Shown: piece by piece, positions 28,141 through 57,000 of the stretch
Layout of the letters: each line of letters starts with the position of its first letter
How positions within the stretch are numbered: position 1 is the stretch's first letter
Virus record (IMG/VR): IMGVR_UViG_3300010149_000001
Coordinates: 17,677 to 81,676 of that record
DNA from: a virus
Length of the DNA: 64,000 nucleotides
Direction: 5' to 3' (one strand)
The notes under the pieces: generated by a model
Database searches by the model: none
Seen by the model: only the letters and a program-made list of their open reading frames with translations
What the model was told of the DNA's origin: nothing
Made by a program: the position numbers and the translations under genes

Positions 28141-28256
28141 CCCGCCAGACGGGTGATACCCCAAGACAAGCCCCCAGAAGTGCGATTGACGAATCCTGTC
28201 TCCGCTTCTGGACACGGCCTCTGGAATACGAGGGGAATGTCTGGCACTCATATTCC
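28141..28256 (+). ncRNA. Candidate small RNA A
   Basis: TTATAC box 29 nt upstream; GCCAGAC/GTCTGGC closing stem; 3' tail GGCACTCATATTCC identical to RNA B. Confidence 0.55.
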
Positions 28257-43204: not shown

Positions 43205-45502
43205 ATGGCTATCAAAGAAGAGTTCAAACTGTCAATGTTGGTCGAGGCCAATACTGACAGATTCAAGAAAGGAATGTCAGAAGTCAATCAAGGTCTGGCG
43301 GCTTCTGGTGGCAAAATGGGCAAGATGGCTCGCATGGGCAAATTGGGTTTTGCCGCTATCGCCACAGCCGCTGTTGCCGCAGGTGCGGCCATTGGAATTG
43401 CTTTCATAATGAAGTCAATACAGAAGTTCGTTGAGTTTGAGGAAACTCTGTTCAGAATCGCCGCCATCTCTGGTGAAACAGGTCTGGCTGGAATTGACCC
43501 ACTCAAGAACAAAATCATGGAACTTGGTGCGGCCACCAAGTCAACCACGACTCAAGTGGCTGAGGCGGCAGAGATTCTGACTCTTGCTGGCTTCTCAATG
43601 GAGGAAATGATTGGAGATGAGTCATCTGGAACGCAAGGTGCGCTTGAGGCTCTGAACAATTTTGCGATAGCGGCTGGAACAGATTTGCCAAACGCCGCTG
43701 GAATCGCCATCGCCACGATGAAAGGTATGGGCAAAGAAGCATCTGAACTCAGAAACATCACAGATATTCTGCTCAATACGCAAGCAAAGACATTCACCAC
43801 AGTCAACGACTTGGGCGAATCCATGAAGTTCCTCGCACCAACGGCGAGAGCATCTGGAATTGCACTTGAAGAAGCGGCGGCGGCGGCAGGTATTCTGGGA
43901 GATGCAGGTCTGAAAGGTTCAATGGCTGGAACAGCCTTGCGTATGGCAATCACGAAACTGCTCAAGCCTTCTGACGATGCCAGAAAATTGATGGAGGATT
44001 TGGGACTTGACTTCTTCACATTGACTCCAGCAGGTCAAGCGGCAAAGAGCGCACTCAGAGAAGTCAGTCGTGGCTTAGAAGCCAGCAAACTTGCGGCTGA
44101 ATCCACCAATGCTCAATTGAAAATACTGAACTCAGAACTCAACGAGATGAGCATTGAGCAACAGACAAACAGTCTGGCGATAATGAAAATCAAGCGCAGA
44201 GCAGAGAAGGAGGGCAGGGAACTCAACAAGAGAGAACTTGACCAAATAAGCCGTCTGGAGGGTGCTAATGCAGACCTCAACATCACGATGGCTGAGAAGC
44301 GCATAACACAGCAACAAGTCAACACAGAGGCTTCTAAGAACAACGAACTCGTGTCTGAACAATCAGCACTATTCTCAGACCTCAACAAACAGGTTGCTGG
44401 TCAGACAACAGGTATCACTTCTCTATCCGATGTATTCCAACAATTGGGTGCGGCTGGTGCAACGACCAACCAGATGCTGGAGATATTCGGCATTCGTGGT
44501 GGAACAGCGGCGATGGCTATGTTGGCAAATGCCGATGCTCTGGATGAATTAACGGCTTCAAACTTTGCCGCACAGGATGGAATGGGGCGAACCTCAGAAC
44601 AAATTGCTGTGATGGAACAATCTGGTGCATTCGCTCTGGCATCTCTGAACTCAAAGTTTGAATCATTCATGCTCATGGTCGGTGAGGTATTCACCCCGAT
44701 ATTGGTTGACAAGGTTATCCCAGCACTCATCAAGTTCATTGACGAGGCTCTGATTCCAATGTTGCCAGCATTCCAAGCACTTGCTGAACAGATGGGAGAT
44801 GTGTTGCCAGATTTGCTGGAGGCTCTTGTTCCATTATTCCTTGTTCTGGCTGAGGTGATTATCGCTCTCGCACCAATTCTGAAACTCACAGCGATGACAG
44901 TTCAATTGCTGATGTTTGTTCTCAAACCGTTCCTTGATTTGCTGGGCGGTATTGCAGAGATGCTGACCGCCATATTTGACCAAGATGCAGAGGCATTCGG
45001 TGAAGGTATGAAGCGAGCATTCGGTGGCCTTCTCAGAATCCTGTTCCCTGTCCTTCACGCTCTGGAGGGCATATTCGGATTCCTTGACAGCACAGGCAAC
45101 AGCGTTGACGAAGCAACAGGCATGAACATCAGCGGTGCGGCCAAAGGTGCGGCTGTGGGTGCTGTGGTCGGCGGACCCGTTGGTGCGCTGGTTGGTGCTG
45201 GAATTGGAATGGCCTTCTTTGCAGAGGGTGGAATCGTCAACAGCCCAACATTGGGAATGGTCGGAGAAGCAGGTTCAGAAGCAATCATGCCGATTGACAA
45301 AATTGACGGCATCATGGCATCTGCTCTCCAACGAGCAGAAACGGGTGGAACAGGTGGCAACAAGACGACTCTCAACATATCGGGTGGAATATCCATTGGT
45401 GAGGGCAATAACCTCAATAAGCGAGATGTCCGTGATGCAGTTAGACAAGCGTTGTCAGATGTGGCTGGCATGAAGTCGAGTGGTGCGAGAGGCGTGATTT
45501 GA
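43205..45502 (+). CDS. Tail tape measure protein (TP901-like core)
   Basis: LGESMKFLAP.A...G..LEE...GILGDAGLKGSMAGTALR; C-terminal FAEGGIV..PT...GEAG.EAI.P. Confidence 0.93.
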   Translation: MAIKEEFKLSMLVEANTDRFKKGMSEVNQGLAASGGKMGKMARMGKLGFAAIATAAVAAGAAIGIAFIMKSIQKFVEFEETLFRIAAISGETGLAGIDPLKNKIMELGAATKSTTTQVAEAAEILTLAGFSMEEMIGDESSGTQGALEALNNFAIAAGTDLPNAAGIAIATMKGMGKEASELRNITDILLNTQAKTFTTVNDLGESMKFLAPTARASGIALEEAAAAAGILGDAGLKGSMAGTALRMAITKLLKPSDDARKLMEDLGLDFFTLTPAGQAAKSALREVSRGLEASKLAAESTNAQLKILNSELNEMSIEQQTNSLAIMKIKRRAEKEGRELNKRELDQISRLEGANADLNITMAEKRITQQQVNTEASKNNELVSEQSALFSDLNKQVAGQTTGITSLSDVFQQLGAAGATTNQMLEIFGIRGGTAAMAMLANADALDELTASNFAAQDGMGRTSEQIAVMEQSGAFALASLNSKFESFMLMVGEVFTPILVDKVIPALIKFIDEALIPMLPAFQALAEQMGDVLPDLLEALVPLFLVLAEVIIALAPILKLTAMTVQLLMFVLKPFLDLLGGIAEMLTAIFDQDAEAFGEGMKRAFGGLLRILFPVLHALEGIFGFLDSTGNSVDEATGMNISGAAKGAAVGAVVGGPVGALVGAGIGMAFFAEGGIVNSPTLGMVGEAGSEAIMPIDKIDGIMASALQRAETGGTGGNKTTLNISGGISIGEGNNLNKRDVRDAVRQALSDVAGMKSSGARGVI

Positions 45503-51278: not shown

Positions 51279-51317
51279 ATCCCAACCGTGATAAGCCACG
51301 AGGGTTGACCTCAAGGC

Positions 51318-53150
51318 ATGGATGAGAACTCTCTGGAGAGGTTTCACCGACTCATCAGAGGCGGCTCAGATGGTGTCGTTGTCAATATGCCTCAAGGCAT
51401 TCTGGATGAGATTGAGAGGATGGGTTCAGACCCACGCAGACCCAAGACAGCAATCGCTCGCTGGGCATCTCAGACATGGTTGGAACATCAGCACGAAGCA
51501 ATCAGAAACGGCGAGAGCGTTGCTCTGGATGCGAGCCATGTTGAGAAGGAACTGATGGAACGCCCACAGCACTATCCAACGACTTGGGGCTTGGACATGA
51601 TTCCATTCCCAGATGACATTGGAGGTTGGGCTTTAGACAAGACGAATACGCTCTGCTACACATCTCTGAATACACCACGCCCATTTGACCCACATCTGTT
51701 CGATATGTCTAAGGCCATATCTGGTTCGCCAGATGGCAAATTGGGATTCGGTTATCATTATCAACACAAGTCTGGGATGGGAGAATTGTATGACATCACG
51801 ACCAGAAGAGGTGGCGGCGCAAGAGGTGGATTCGCATTCACGACGGGTCCGACTGAGGGCGCATATTCGTCAGCAGTTCTGCCACAGCCACAGTTCAATC
51901 TGGGTCGTCTGGGCTTCTCTAATGGCGGCTGGAATCCAGAAGGTCTCCAATGGACAAACAGACCCAAGAGAATGAAACTCAGCGGTCTGAGGAACGGCTG
52001 GGCGCATCGTGTGATATTCGCTCGCTCTCGTCAAGTCATGTTCAGAAACTTGTATGGCGACATGGATATTGTTGAAGCAGTTCCAAAAGCACCGACTGTT
52101 GTTCTGAATGGACTGACAGATGTTCACGGAGTTATTGGGGTCAATATGAAGAAAACTTTCAACGCACCGACTGAACTTGAAATAACAATCAACAATCCAA
52201 ACGGCAGAAGGACAGGAATGTTCAATCGAGGCGACACGATTCAGATATTTGCCGCACCAAGAACTTGGGCGAGTCCTCCTTTGGTTTTCACAGGATTCGT
52301 GTCAGAGATTGAAGAGTCAACCGATGAAATCAATCTGTTCTGTTTGGATTCTCTGGGGCTTCTGGGGCTTGAAATTATCAAGACCGACCAGAATTATTTC
52401 AAGGCAGATGCTCTGACTATCGCCAAAGACTTGATTGCCAATTCGGTCTATGCACCTCCGATTGGCAGAATCAAAAACGAGTCCAGAATAACTCTGCCTC
52501 AAGGTCTCAAGTTCAAAGGACAGAACCGCTTATCTGCGATTCAGACGATACTGAACATCATCAACAGCACACCAAACAAGTTCCAGATTTATGCAACATC
52601 AGACGGCTACATCACAGTCAGAAAACTGAAAGAGGTTTATGACACGAATACAACCCCCTATACGGCTGGAACTGTCCCAAGAACGGCTGACCCACAGGAC
52701 TTCTATCCAACGGCCATACAGAGGCTCTCTGGGGATAAAACAGGGTTCAATGTCGTCGTGGTTGAGAACAGCGATTTGAACATCAGCATCACCGTTCCAA
52801 AAGTCGGCTCTGACAGATTCCCTGCGATTCCTGTTGAGCGTGTTGTCCAAGACGGGTCAATCGTTGATGAGCAACAGGCCAGAATGGTTGGTGAATACTT
52901 CTTGAATACTCAAGGCTCAGACAACACCAGATGGATTGTTGAAGGAATCCCAGAACGGTTTGACATCGAGGTTGGAGATGTGATGGAGTTTGCATCGTCA
53001 GAGGGCAACCTGTCTGGTCGCCAACGCATCTTTGACATCTCGTGGGAATTGGGCGTTGGAACAAGCAACATGACGATGAATGTTGGCCGTCAAGCACCCG
53101 ATGTCATATCCACTCTCCAATACGCTCTGGGAATCTCGCAAGGTCGCTGA
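51318..53150 (+). CDS. Baseplate hub/Tal-like protein
   Basis: C-terminal half fits a hub fold (ITINNPNG, VFTGFV, IEVGDV); position in the tail module. Confidence 0.7.
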   Translation: MDENSLERFHRLIRGGSDGVVVNMPQGILDEIERMGSDPRRPKTAIARWASQTWLEHQHEAIRNGESVALDASHVEKELMERPQHYPTTWGLDMIPFPDDIGGWALDKTNTLCYTSLNTPRPFDPHLFDMSKAISGSPDGKLGFGYHYQHKSGMGELYDITTRRGGGARGGFAFTTGPTEGAYSSAVLPQPQFNLGRLGFSNGGWNPEGLQWTNRPKRMKLSGLRNGWAHRVIFARSRQVMFRNLYGDMDIVEAVPKAPTVVLNGLTDVHGVIGVNMKKTFNAPTELEITINNPNGRRTGMFNRGDTIQIFAAPRTWASPPLVFTGFVSEIEESTDEINLFCLDSLGLLGLEIIKTDQNYFKADALTIAKDLIANSVYAPPIGRIKNESRITLPQGLKFKGQNRLSAIQTILNIINSTPNKFQIYATSDGYITVRKLKEVYDTNTTPYTAGTVPRTADPQDFYPTAIQRLSGDKTGFNVVVVENSDLNISITVPKVGSDRFPAIPVERVVQDGSIVDEQQARMVGEYFLNTQGSDNTRWIVEGIPERFDIEVGDVMEFASSEGNLSGRQRIFDISWELGVGTSNMTMNVGRQAPDVISTLQYALGISQGR

Positions 53151-53151
53151 T

Positions 53152-53190
53152 TTAGGAACATAAGCATTGAGATGCCGATGTATTGATATA
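53152..53190 (+). promoter_or_regulatory. Early-type conserved promoter element driving the large ncRNA
   Basis: TTAGGAACATAAGCATTGAGAT...TATTGATATA; the first 19 nt are identical to 51000-51018. Confidence 0.75.
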
Positions 53191-53212
53191 GTAGTGGTTG
53201 TTCACATAGATT

Positions 53213-53967
53213 GTTGGGGGCGCAAACCCCCAGCCGAAGTGATACCTCCCGATGCGAGTCGGGGGGTGAATTGAAAGGCCAGACCAGCGAGATTTAACAC
53301 TCCCTGTGCGATACCCTAATGCGAAAGTTCTCATCATGCACTCCCTCCAGATACAGTCCCTCCATCATACTCTCTTATCCGCTTGGTCTGGCCGATGACA
53401 CTCAGAGGCTAAACTCCGAGTCCCGATTCAGCACCCCTCGTGGGATAAGTCTGCTACAACCTTTGCTGGGGGACAACGAGGGGGGCGAACCCTCCCTAAG
53501 CCGTGAAGAGGGTCGTTGCCTAAGAGGTCAAGGGCGTGAAGTCGGAACTTAGATTCCTTCACGATTCCTAATCTCACCGATACGGTTCTGGAAAAACCAG
53601 AAACGGGTTGCGACTGAAAGAAGCGTTAAACTGAGTTCTGGGATTTGTTCGCCCCAGATGAGTGTCTGCCCTCAGAGGGGGTCGTGGTAAGGGTGGCATA
53701 CCCACGACTTTCCAGATGAGGTCAATTCACGAAGCAGAGAACCCGCATCCAACATGGGGCGGCTCGTGGGTGGCTTAAAAATGAGAAAGACAAATCCAAG
53801 TCCTATCGGCCACTTTAGAGAGAGTTCTATGGTTGAGGCTGGGAACAGCCCCAATGGAACGGAGTCTTAGGCAGGGATGCCTCTGATAGACTCGCATGTA
53901 TAAGCGCAACCACTCAGATAATATCTGTGCTGGGTTGTGTCGCAACCTGCTTCTATCCTTCAATTCA
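53213..53967 (+). ncRNA. Candidate large (~755 nt) highly structured RNA
   Basis: No credible ORF; promoter at the right distance; more than 12 helices including several perfect 8-10-bp long-range pairings; GNRA tetraloops. Confidence 0.75.
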
Positions 53968-54009
53968 GACATCAACACTCACATAAACCCCCCAGAGCAA
54001 CGCATCAGT

Positions 54010-57000
54010 ATGACAGCACCCGCTATCACTCCAGCAACGGGTGTGCCAAAGTCAGCGGCTGACGCAGTTCCACCAATTGGCTCTCGTGGTTTGCCGTTCA
54101 CATGGGCTTTGGCAGATTGGCCGAGCGACACAGCACCCGTCGCTCTCCAATTCGCTTTGAATGAAATCCCCATTCAGAAAACGACAGACAGATTGGCTCT
54201 CTTCGATGAAACCATCTGGGCTGAAAAACAGATGAATCCAATTGGCGTGAGTGGAACATCAATTCAGTTTGAGCCAATTGCACCAACCGCATCATACATT
54301 GAAAGCACTTATGCAATCAATCAATTGGCAAATGTCAACCCAAGAACATTCCCACCAAGAGTCGCTGGTGCTGGAATCAATCAATCTCCACCATCTCTGA
54401 ATCACGGCAGAGGTTCTCTGGTATTTTCCTCCACTATCAACGGAGTATCGAAGTCAATATATGACCCAGCAAAAGTCAGAGGCTCTGCTCAATATCAAGG
54501 ATTATCATTCTCAAACTGCGGCAGATTTGTTGACCATCCAGAAGAGAACTACGCATCTGCTCGCCCAGCAAACCACTCGTGGGTCAAGGCGCAAGAAGGA
54601 TTCCAACCACATCTGCCAGCGTCATCGCTCGACTTTGGAACAGGAACAGTTCTCAAGGGCAACAACATCGAAACCGACCACGCCATTGGTGGTGTCGGAG
54701 ATGGTCAGCCCAATTGTTTGGACACCCAATATGTGGGCTTTCAGACGATAACATCAACCGTTGTCAAATCGGTCTCAGCGATACCGTCAAATGGACTTGG
54801 CAGTATCTATGGAGACTCACATAATTCAGTTCACTACACCAACCTCATTTGCTCAAATCTGGCGAATGATTTGGGTTATCCTGTGGAGATGGCGAATGGA
54901 GGAATACACCCCGTTCAATCCTATGAATACACTCGTCAGACTCATTGGTGCATCAATCTGGGAACTGCTCAGACAGCGTTGCGAGATGGCGTTGAAGCGT
55001 CATCTCCAGACGGCTTGACAAAAGCCAGCGGCTGGGTTGCACCTGCTGGGTTTGGGGTTGGCGCATACGACACCAATTCAGCATCTGCTGAGATGTCTCA
55101 AGCAAACCCAGCGGCTGGACTGTCGAGCAAGACTGAGACCATTCAACAGATAGTTCTCAACGACACATTCAGCGACGGTGCTTCTGGGCAAGTCCCAACC
55201 CCATCATCAACGCTGGGAGACATCACTCTGGGTGCAAGTGTTGTCCACGACACGGCTGGTCTGATTGGCTTTGAAGGGACAATCACAGCATCTGCTTTCT
55301 ATGCACCCACTAAGGACACAGACCCAACAGGAGTTCAAGGTGCAATCGCTCACGCATCTGGCAAAGGATATGCTGGATTGAATGTTCAAGTTCACTCTGG
55401 ATTCGGCATCAGAAGGAACAAAGGAGGCATGGGTCGTCTGGGCAACCCATACAGATACGGTTCTGATGGAACGCCTGTCAGAGTGATGACAGATGCCATG
55501 AAAACACACGCTATGAGAGGCGATGGCACAGAAGGAACTGCTGATGCAAACTGCAATCAGACTTGGTTCAGAACAGGGACAGTCGGAGTGAATAATTCAG
55601 CCGTTCCATCATCAGACCCAGATGGAATCCCAGCCATCGGAGACCCGCAACCCAAGCCAGCACCAGATTCCGTATTCCAACATTTCATGATTGGCGAAAC
55701 TCCAGAAAATGTCGGTGGAACTGATGGAAGAAAAATTATCGGGGCTAATATGCCAGCAAGCGGCATGTGCAACGAGATTCATAATTCCTATTCAACAGGC
55801 AAATGGATTGCCAATGGAGTGCCGACAAAAGTGCAAATTATACCTGTCATAACAGGGTATGAAGATATTCCTGTTTCAGTCGGTGCGGCCAAACTTGGTT
55901 TGTTCCCATCGGCACAGATTCAGATGTTCAGAAAGCCTCTGGTGGATTATCACATATTGGTCTCAATAACCGACAGCCCAGAGACCAGAGCAAACACAGA
56001 CCCAACAAATCCGTTTGATGGAGACCCAACCCAGAGGAATGTGCCAGACCCTCAGAGATTGAGTGCGAATGCTGACTATTCCAAGCAGGGCTGTGTCATC
56101 TATCATGGCATATTCAGAATTGACCCACAGACTCTGGAACAGATATTCATTGACATGAATGAACAGTCTGGAATGGTGTTTAACATGGATGCTGACGGCG
56201 GTGCGGTCTGCCCATCATCTGTGATTCCTCGCCACGACTATGGCAAGGTTGGAACTGTGCAACAGGGATGGGGATTGCATCAAGCAACACCATTCAGACC
56301 TATTGCTCTGACAGACAAATTGGGCAAAGTTCCTCGTCTGGGCGGTGCTATCGAGGGCGGTGGATTTTATCAGCGTGGAGGCATCTCTCACCTCTGGGAT
56401 GGGTGTGAATATGGTGGTGAGATATTCGTCGGTGCTGACTGTATCAAACCACACGAACTCCAGACATCAGCGGCCAATGGAACAAACGAGTTTGGTCAGC
56501 CAACATTCGGCATATTTGGCAACGGACAAATCTGGGCTGATGGCACAGGTGCGCCCAAGAGACCAACAGGAATGGAACTTTTCGTCTGGAGATATTCACC
56601 ACAGGATGACCCATTATACCCATCTGTTTCTGATGGCTACATGGCTATGAACAGCCTCACAGATGGTGCGAACAAGCATGGCATCCCATACACGCCAGCG
56701 ATGGACAACATCACTCCACAGCCAGCGTCATGGCATAAGCCCAGAACAGGCAATCTGGAGGGCGCAGTTTGGGCAATCCACGATTGGGTTATGCCACAGG
56801 TCGAACTGATGCGCTATCTGGGCAGAGAAGAAAAGACAGAGGCTGAACATTATGAAGTATCTGGCTCTCACACTTATCATCCAAGTCTGCATTGTTCCTC
56901 GCTCAGAGCGATGGATGACGGGCGATTCATGATGGCGGCTGTTCATGTTGACTACATCAAGACAGAAGCAGACTATCCAACGAATGAAATTAGTTATCCT

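Follow-up and report, generated by a model that had tools for sequence, protein, structure and literature searches.

Only a few structured noncoding RNAs of unassigned function exceed 400 nucleotides (nt) in length, and new biology has come from every class discovered to date. Among those borne by viruses, GOLLD and ROOL are hundreds of nucleotides long, multibranched, and free of open reading frames (ORFs), and they are associated with tRNA genes. Phi29 pRNA, a virus-encoded structured RNA of ~170 nt, is transcribed from its own promoter, acts in trans, and is essential. The element considered here lies at positions 53213 to ~53967, on the plus strand, of a 64,000-nt window (the whole stretch of DNA that was analyzed), which corresponds to bases 17677 to 81676 of an 81,676-bp virus in IMG/VR, record IMGVR_UViG_3300010149_000001, with direct terminal repeats. 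We consider it likely that this element is a separate gene for a structured noncoding RNA of ~750 nt, transcribed from a promoter of the type that drives the protein cassettes of the virus. Its fold is conserved, it is noncoding, it occurs in one copy per genome with an accessory distribution, it is modular, and it is present in RNA libraries. An earlier annotation of the stretch, made from its letters alone and hereafter called the sequence-only reading, had proposed a large noncoding RNA with its own promoter at this place, a proposal that is sustained by covariation, by conservation, by the lack of a conserved ORF, and by contigs on 53222-53953 in RNA libraries.

The same reading recognized no known family, and searches of Rfam 15 agree: covariance models of its 4227 families, which include GOLLD, ROOL, OLE, HEARO, group I and II introns, RNase P, phage pRNA, and small ribozymes, gave no match at the gathering threshold in the 64-kb window and none in 11 related loci (60.7 kb). 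Relaxing the threshold to an E value of ≤10 on 53100-54100 returned only SNORD67 (15.8 bits) and Prion_pknot (15.7 bits), both at chance level, and ARAGORN found no tRNA or tmRNA gene in the window. The RNA therefore resembles GOLLD and ROOL in its length, branching, lack of ORFs, carriage by a virus, and unassigned function but differs from them in having neither accompanying tRNA genes nor an Rfam match, in its archaeal-type promoter, and in the joining of one 5′ platform to interchangeable, otherwise unrelated bodies. Its size and complexity are comparable to those of OLE as well. Compared with phi29 pRNA, RNAs of the window's family are larger (up to ~930 nt) and accessory, again with no counterpart in Rfam. 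The omega RNAs (HEARO) of IscB and TnpB likewise combine a conserved structured platform with a variable part, but here the flanking genes are tail or portal genes with no adjacent nuclease gene, no Rfam model matches, and the variable part is a large conserved fold rather than a short guide. As for a diversity-generating retroelement template or a retron, the promoter is the one portion of the gap that occurs again elsewhere in the genome, and no search was aimed at a reverse transcriptase gene. We rate the RNA as belonging to a kind that is already known, that of large virus-borne structured RNAs of unassigned function, although a categorically new class is also conceivable.

Two magrovirus papers (PMC5434244 and PMC11706807) contain no occurrence of "promoter," "intergenic," or "non-coding," although their supplements might hold annotations, and 2026 preprints on noncoding elements contain no occurrence of "archaeal virus," "Poseidoniales," "magrovirus," or "marine." Judged by Rfam and by the literature searched, supplements aside, the RNA family is apparently undescribed.

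A 5′ platform with compensatory changes

The first ~67 nt of the RNA form a platform of two hairpins, joined by the single-stranded linker CCGAAG, that is common to 14 distinct sequence contexts. In an alignment of 14 distinct sequences, 88.5% of the platform's cells are paired, compared with 40 to 58% when the 3′ partners are slid; six pairs have changed on both sides, and the observed values were reached by 0 to 1 of 500 shuffles. Hairpin 1, with 94% of its cells paired in the 14 sequences, has two pairs that changed on both sides, and hairpin 2 has four; examples are the replacement of G-C by C-G in hairpin 1 of the related locus L094 and of C-G by U-A in hairpin 2 of L007. A covariance model of the two hairpins (R1), run with cmsearch, gave a single match in the window, at 53213-53282 with 77.8 bits, and strong matches in 16 of 50 sources. 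The window's copy displays the features common to the platform family, namely, an octamer ~22 nt before hairpin 1, the linker CCGAAG, hairpin 2, and pairing that is kept through substitutions. The tail that follows hairpin 2 reads UGAAUUGAAAG in the window and GAAUUGGAAAC, AUUCAAGG, or ACAAAGG in other members.

Fold and conservation of the RNA body

Five sequences entered the alignment of the whole RNA: the window, L001 (partial), L103 (full length), L104 (first 688 nt), and L007, with L103 and L104 coming from a pattern scan of metagenomes of the Joint Genome Institute (JGI). RNAalifold yields from them a multibranched structure of 123 pairs over 53213-53730, platform included, in which 94.1% of cells are paired (40 to 49% in slid controls) and 23 pairs have changed on both sides (2 to 6 in slid controls). 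Among 500 shuffles, none reached the observed value for four of five measures, and nine did so for the fifth. Because this fold was derived from the same alignment, the count was repeated with the window's own minimum free energy (MFE) fold, which gave 87.9% of cells paired against 37 to 46% when slid and 32 changes on both sides against 6 to 11. Covariation among collected homologs, which the sequence-only reading had named as a check, is thus found both in the platform and in the fold of the whole RNA.

Two of the long-range helices put forward in that reading, 53277-86/53384-93 and 53397-404/53659-66, form part of the consensus fold (P4 and P5) and carry compensatory changes, with both sides altered in 5 of the 11 pairs of P4 and in 2 of the 8 pairs of P5. 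The helix 53267-75/53959-67, which had been thought to close the domain, is not supported: the better-supported partner of 53268-74 is 53722-28 (P3). This helix shows one change from A-U to G-C in L007, and its partner strand, with 8 to 9 of 9 pairs, is present in the window, L103, L104, L007, and L094; it was sought in L088 and in the L062 type and not found. No fewer than six pairs of the consensus are G-U or U-G wobbles throughout the five sequences and fit the plus strand only, in agreement with the earlier remark that G-U pairs favor that strand.

The multibranched core of the body (53498-53668) is 79 to 87% identical to its counterparts in L007, L103, and L104, against 43 to 61% at the third codon positions of the neighboring gene. 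With L007, identity is 87% in the platform and 79% in the core, compared with 63% overall and 43% at third codon positions in the adjacent gene for a 610-amino-acid (aa) tail protein; with L104, the corresponding values are 97% and 87% for the RNA and 78% and 61% for the gene. Judged from these identities, purifying selection on the RNA is stronger than on the adjacent tail gene. In L103, the 3′ domain is 95% identical to the window's; in L104 it has been replaced in part, and in L007 it cannot be aligned. Its local hairpins hold their pairing through the changes in L104. Among the variants, whole hairpins have been inserted, shortened, or swapped, as happens in RNA genes.

Promoter and boundaries

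The gap that follows the 610-aa gene (53151-54009, ~860 bases) holds no credible ORF. The longest, of 77 aa at 53319-53552, has no counterpart in L103, L104, or L007, and no ORF is conserved among these sequences; the earlier statement that ~760 bp here lack a credible ORF is correct. At the far end of the gap, a mechanically called ORF of 2409 aa begins at 53896, inside the RNA. The frame from this ATG meets a stop in L103, so 53896 is not the start of the giant gene, whose true start, as far as comparison of the sequences goes, is likely the ATG at 54010; a TATA-like box stands 20 to 21 nt ahead of the latter and is kept in L007 and L103.

There are 11 copies of the octamer TTGATATA in the window, where 0.72 would be expected. 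One copy lies at the head of the gap behind an upstream box that recurs at three other sites of the genome, so the sequence-only reading was right to see a full copy of the viral promoter before the gap. At 6 of the 12 TTNATATA[GC] sites, an ATG begins 21 to 23 nt past the octamer, and four of these six ATGs (11138, 17356, 20003, and 63695) open ORFs of at least 90 aa; from the octamer at 53183, the same spacing reaches G53213, the first base of the 8-bp hairpin. The hairpin therefore stands where sister promoters place a leaderless ATG, as had been noted from the spacing of the protein cassettes. The distance from octamer to ATG is that of an archaeal TATA box with leaderless mRNAs. In the promoter alignment, the same layout precedes the platform in relatives.

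An accessory hot spot and a modular family

The protein collection contains 87 relatives of the 610-aa protein, many of them on contigs of 76 to 84 kb; two, P0002 and P0003 from ENA, are 82% and 81% identical to it. An alignment of 34 of the relatives brought in 79 IMG/VR loci. In the 58 of 68 loci where a next long frame was found, the gap after the 610-aa gene measures 219 to 1167 nt, and its content is mostly unlike the window's gap: about half of 43 distinct gaps carry open frames of 100 to 181 aa, on either strand, and in at least six other relatives the same site is occupied by leaderless protein cassettes with a TATA-like octamer 21 to 23 nt before the ATG. Nine cassette proteins from the site were checked for Pfam families, and none gave a match. 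The junction after the 610-aa gene is a hot spot for accessory cassettes, and in the window, the cassette is an RNA.

Model R1 finds the platform once in the window's whole genome. Three of five complete relatives are positive, one of them weakly at 19 bits, as are 8 of 24 further records, 23 of which are fragments, the sole complete one being without a match. Position and orientation vary: in the L062, L034, L025, and L030 types, the platform is encoded by the minus strand and converges on the 610-aa gene, whereas it lies directly before the portal gene in L088 and L094 and at yet another place in L125. A second covariance model (R2), built from the window's core, matches only the window, L103, L104, and L007 among 52 sources; a core shared by all bodies was accordingly rejected, as R2 finds no body outside the window type. 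Bodies range from ~300 to 930 nt, and their all-against-all comparison shows a mosaic of common blocks and insertions. The window's RNA is the largest body type seen in the family, and bodies are shuffled by recombination. Beyond the promoter and the platform, several types also have a body-closing helix in common. A separate consensus fold, in which 13 pairs have changed on both sides, is obtained from four sequences of the L062 type. The comparative data set at hand thus comprises at least five unrelated body types on one platform, with visible recombination.

L001 does not differ from the window in its 610-aa protein, and its RNA departs from the window's only in a patch of the core, L001:4405-4567, corresponding to window positions 53498-53668. 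This patch is L103-like, 83% identical, which suggests patchwise exchange between cocirculating variants.

RNA-library contigs

Among the 24 listed sequencing runs that contain part of the stretch, six are metatranscriptomes. Four metatranscriptome runs, from four studies, were placed on 51300-56000 as contigs, which come without strand or level information. Contigs of 237 to 726 nt from all four sit on 53222-53953, some L103-like and others L007-like, and those of runs X15, X21, and X22 begin at 53222/3 without a loose end, 9 to 10 nt after the presumed start of the RNA. We take these contigs as a weak hint of expression, given that carryover of DNA is possible. The absence of RNA contigs from 51300-53183 and 53969-56000 is no evidence. 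The runs were found with the gap's own words, and L007-like flanks (63% identical) are too diverged to be placed at likeness 85. Word shares of 0.15 to 0.21 in the runs permit no conclusion on habitat.

Table 1. Coordinates of the RNA, its parts, and neighboring features in the window
Feature	Position	Strand	Remarks
Cassette-type promoter	53155..53190	+	Upstream box 53155-53172; TATA-like octamer TTGATATA at 53183-53190
Whole RNA	53213..53967	+	~750 nt; 5′ end placed at 53212-53213; 3′ end at or after ~53950
Hairpin 1	53213..53234	+	8 bp, flush with the presumed 5′ end
Linker CCGAAG	53234..53239	+	Single-stranded; invariant in 14 of 14 module sequences
Hairpin 2	53244..53267	+	9 to 10 bp; loop UGCGAG nearly invariant
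Helix P3 (closing), 5′ strand	53268..53274	+	Pairs with 53722-53728 (RNAalifold)
Helix P4, 5′ strand	53277..53287	+	GGCCAGACCA of the sequence-only reading; pairs with 53383-53393
C-rich stretch	53298..53367	+	Mostly unpaired; motifs CUCCCUG and UCCCUCCA (the latter twice)
Helix P4, 3′ strand	53383..53393	+	RNAalifold
Helix P5, 5′ strand	53397..53404	+	GACACTCA of the sequence-only reading; pairs with 53659-53666
Multibranched conserved core	53498..53668	+	Model R2: 175 positions, 46 bp
Helix P5, 3′ strand	53659..53666	+	RNAalifold
Helix P3 (closing), 3′ strand	53722..53728	+	RNAalifold
3′ domain	53731..53967	+	Less conserved; local hairpins; seven 8- to 9-nt segments complementary to the 5′ domain
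Boundary	53980..54012	+	TATA-like box CACATAAACC (53980-89); leaderless-type ATG 54010 of the 2371-aa gene
Tape measure protein	43205-45502		Tail module
1703-aa PKD protein			Tail module, between tape measure and 610-aa genes
610-aa protein	51318-53150		Tail module; followed by the gap
2371-aa protein (giant gene)	from 54010		Tail module, beyond the gap

Self-complementarity

All eight complementary pairs listed in the sequence-only reading exist in the window, and the one described with a G-U pair contains a perfect 9-mer, 53606-14/53939-47. In 53213-53967, there are 15 perfect Watson-Crick pairings of at least 8 nt, against 3.86 ± 1.97 expected (0 of 300 dinucleotide shuffles reach 15), 7 of at least 9 nt against 0.94 (0 of 300), and 1 of at least 10 nt against 0.17 (45 of 300). 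In the classes of at least 8 and at least 9 nt, none of the 300 shuffles reaches the count, so the observation is more than chance. Seven crossing complementarities join the 5′ domain to the 3′ domain, and four of them are testable in L103, where 53389-96/53805-12, 53402-09/53879-86, and 53606-14/53939-47 lose two pairs each and the fourth loses one. The description of the RNA as pseudoknot rich therefore finds no backing, with three of the four testable pairings broken, albeit in a test that is weak either way because the 3′ domain of L103 is 95% identical to that of the window, probably through recent exchange. The hairpin 2 loop has a complement at 53889-97 in the window (53252-60/53889-97), but of the 12 RNAs examined only one other, L103, has such a complement (2 of 12 in all), and a kissing interaction was rejected as a feature of the family.

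The excess of crossing complementarities could reflect alternative folds, contacts between molecules, or an inverted duplication of patches. GOLLD, ROOL, and OLE are reported to form RNA-only homo-oligomers (PMC12286853), and the excess in the window's RNA may be seen as reminiscent of them.

Weighing the alternatives

Several observations weigh against a separate RNA gene of this extent. The large fold rests on five related sequences, two of them partial, so that the changed pairs do not count as independent events; support for the 3′ third comes from the window, L103 (95% identical there), and part of L104. The window's gap contains no terminator-like site and no run of five or more Ts, both ends of the RNA are assigned by reasoning, and the contigs from RNA runs, which carry neither strand nor level, may stem from DNA carryover. 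The C-rich motifs of the window are absent from L007, L061, L063, L010, and L030, and the virus's own coding strand is rich in GGAGG (74 occurrences versus 32 of CCTCC). An archaeal host is suggested by promoter geometry only, whereas the named relatives of the capsid protein are bacterial phages. Folding energy is no help: the MFE z scores of the two domains (40 shuffles per domain) are −2.25 (5′ domain) and −1.6 (3′ domain), and two coding controls gave −1.67 and −2.55. Because coding controls score alike, folding energy was not used as evidence for the window's RNA, even though a 781-nt segment scored −3.47 on the plus strand and −1.86 on the minus strand (20 shuffles). The L062, L094, and L030 bodies have z scores of −4 to −5, equal on the minus strand for L094 and L030.

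The missing terminator, together with the orientation of the RNA toward the giant gene in the window, L103, and L007, would fit a reading in which the 2371-aa gene carries an extended, structured 5′ leader or some other cis-regulatory region, with transcription reading through from 53183 to 54010 and the fold controlling that gene. We find this decidedly improbable, given that a separate TATA-like box, kept in L007 and L103, serves the giant gene, that the platform RNA in four body types lies on the opposite strand with no gene downstream, that in L088, L094, and L125 it precedes the portal gene or sits elsewhere, and that the RNA of L125 ends in a hairpin plus six Ts and that of the L062 type at a run of four to five Ts; the varying position and strand of the platform among relatives speak against a leader of the giant gene. 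The hypervariability of the site, with its mostly unrelated contents in gaps of 219 to 1167 nt, the replacement of a single core patch between L001 and the window, and z scores that resemble those of coding DNA would also suit a recombination hot spot holding a decayed cassette, in which whatever is conserved would act as DNA (a promoter, operator, or crossover point) and have no function as RNA. Against this, compensatory changes preserve helices, the G-U asymmetry fits one strand, the platform and core are better conserved than neighboring third codon positions, and RNA-library contigs fall on the stretch, so that we regard it as very improbable. A bacterial host raises a different possibility: the promoter at 53183-53212 can also be read as sigma-70-like (TTGATA, 18 nt, and TAGATT, with 9 of 12 consensus matches), the TAG(A/T)TT ahead of hairpin 1 is kept across the family, and the only named relatives of the capsid protein are two bacterial phages (24 to 25% identity). 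Transcription would then start at ~53219, inside hairpin 1, making this hairpin a DNA feature or only partly transcribed. The three RNA contigs that start at 53222/3 are compatible with either start. TAG(A/T)TT is, however, absent from sister promoters that drive proteins, six of which, belonging to ATG-started genes, have no −10-like hexamer at that place, and hairpin 1 keeps its pairing through changes on both sides, which would be needless in a DNA-only site; a sigma-70 promoter thus appears unlikely.

The least probable of the alternatives is that hairpin 2 and the adjoining UGAAUUGAAAG mimic a CRISPR repeat, as a solitary repeat, a mini-array, or an RNA anti-CRISPR, which Cas proteins of the host would bind or cut. 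It has in its favor a stable hairpin followed by an 11-nt tail ending in AUUGAAAG, which we take to resemble the repeat ends of type I-C and archaeal type I and III systems, as well as the early, cassette-type promoter and the accessory distribution, a combination that recalls solitary CRISPR repeats and RNA anti-CRISPRs expressed from early accessory cassettes. Yet a scan of 185,579 GTDB species genomes gave four single matches, all in G+C-rich bacterial metagenome-assembled genomes, and no array, the scan being an exact match to a degenerate hairpin 2 pattern that diverged host repeats would escape. Furthermore, the tail varies among the 14 module sequences and offers no conserved repeat-end handle, there is one copy per genome, and, unlike in CRISPR-repeat RNAs, a large structured body follows. 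We therefore retain the reading of 53213 to ~53967 as a probable gene for a structured RNA.

Proposed role

For this RNA gene, we tentatively propose an accessory role, exerted in trans and early in infection, in which the RNA would serve as a decoy or scaffold during host takeover or counterdefense. This role is favored because of the cassette promoter, the location in a hot spot, the patchy distribution, and the mosaic evolution. The gene would be expressed along with the rest of the cassette genes. Together with the invariant linker and loop, the flush 5′ hairpin would act as a stabilizing platform that shields the 5′ end and is bound by a conserved protein, and the fast-changing body with its exposed C-rich motifs (CUCCCUG and UCCCUCCA) might interact with a target that is not the same in all hosts or competing viruses. 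Such a target could be a protein or a purine-rich RNA, such as Shine-Dalgarno-like sequences.

Among 13 representatives, CUCCCUG is found in 8 copies in 6, with unrelated bodies (background, 0.03 per kb per strand), and UCCCUCCA in 5 copies in 4, again with unrelated bodies (background, 0.016 per kb per strand). Motifs of the CCUCC type show modest enrichment in the window, L103, L104, L088, L094, and L100 and are at or below chance in L007, L062, L034, L025, L030, L050, L061, L063, and L010. The abundance of GGAGG in the virus itself and the existence of motif-free members count against a simple anti-Shine-Dalgarno sponge, which is kept only as one target option.

More doubtful still, in our view, is a broader proposal, in which the conserved platform, docking a conserved partner, and the large hypervariable body, shuffled by recombination, would define an early-expressed RNA class that serves either as an RNA-only weapon in conflict of virus with host or of virus with virus (a decoy for a defense or translation factor, acting through CUCCCUG and UCCCUCCA) or as an RNA-only multimer. 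In the multimer version, the crossing 8- to 9-nt complementarities between 5′ and 3′ domains would be contacts between molecules, not pseudoknots. If true, these RNAs would form the first class of large ornate RNAs among viruses whose promoters are of archaeal type.

The RNA shows signs of expression in the sea, and the 67-nt covariance model of the platform can be used to mine metagenomes and metatranscriptomes. Several promoter-driven, ORF-free stretches here are probably RNA genes, which means that protein-only annotation misses part of the accessory repertoire.

Genomic context and related loci

Genes in the window encode a family B DNA polymerase, a MoxR-type ATPase, and a vWA protein. 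Others specify a terminase, a portal with a fused F-like domain, a prohead protease, and a capsid protein of the HK97 type. The virus has no close relative among named phages, and the DNA of the gap matches none of them. The lineage appears to consist of marine tailed viruses of ~80 kb with archaeal-type promoters that infect uncultured marine archaea, whose gene regulation and takeover by viruses are barely known.

Other members of the family provide further examples of platform RNAs and of neighboring elements. Those situated before the portal gene are L088:5363-5787 and L094:392-736; at the homologous place, window positions 28141-28256 form an ORF-free stretch behind a TATA-like box that is unlike the L088 and L094 bodies in sequence. 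L125:1501-2160 has a body of ~640 nt, a diverged hairpin 2, and both C-rich motifs, and it ends in its hairpin and six Ts ~640 nt past its start; it lies in a part of a 55.5-kb record that shows no translated similarity to the window. An inverted repeat around the promoter of the L062 type, 8 nt in length, was dropped from consideration, being absent in the window.

L105 is 99.96% identical to the window through hairpin 2, then 98.95% identical to L101 in inverted orientation, and runs on into the antisense strand of the 610-aa gene. We did not use it as a recombinant of the window's platform with an L062-type body, as it is probably an assembly chimera across a shared 23-nt stretch of the platform; shared platform repeats may cause misassemblies in such viruses. 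Finally, in the L062 type (L062:1449-1650, minus strand, and also L101, L108, and L099), the first RNA is followed by another TATA-like box, behind which stand two tandem hairpin elements of ~50 nt with CUCCCUG and then a run of Ts, a stretch that is probably a second, small RNA gene.

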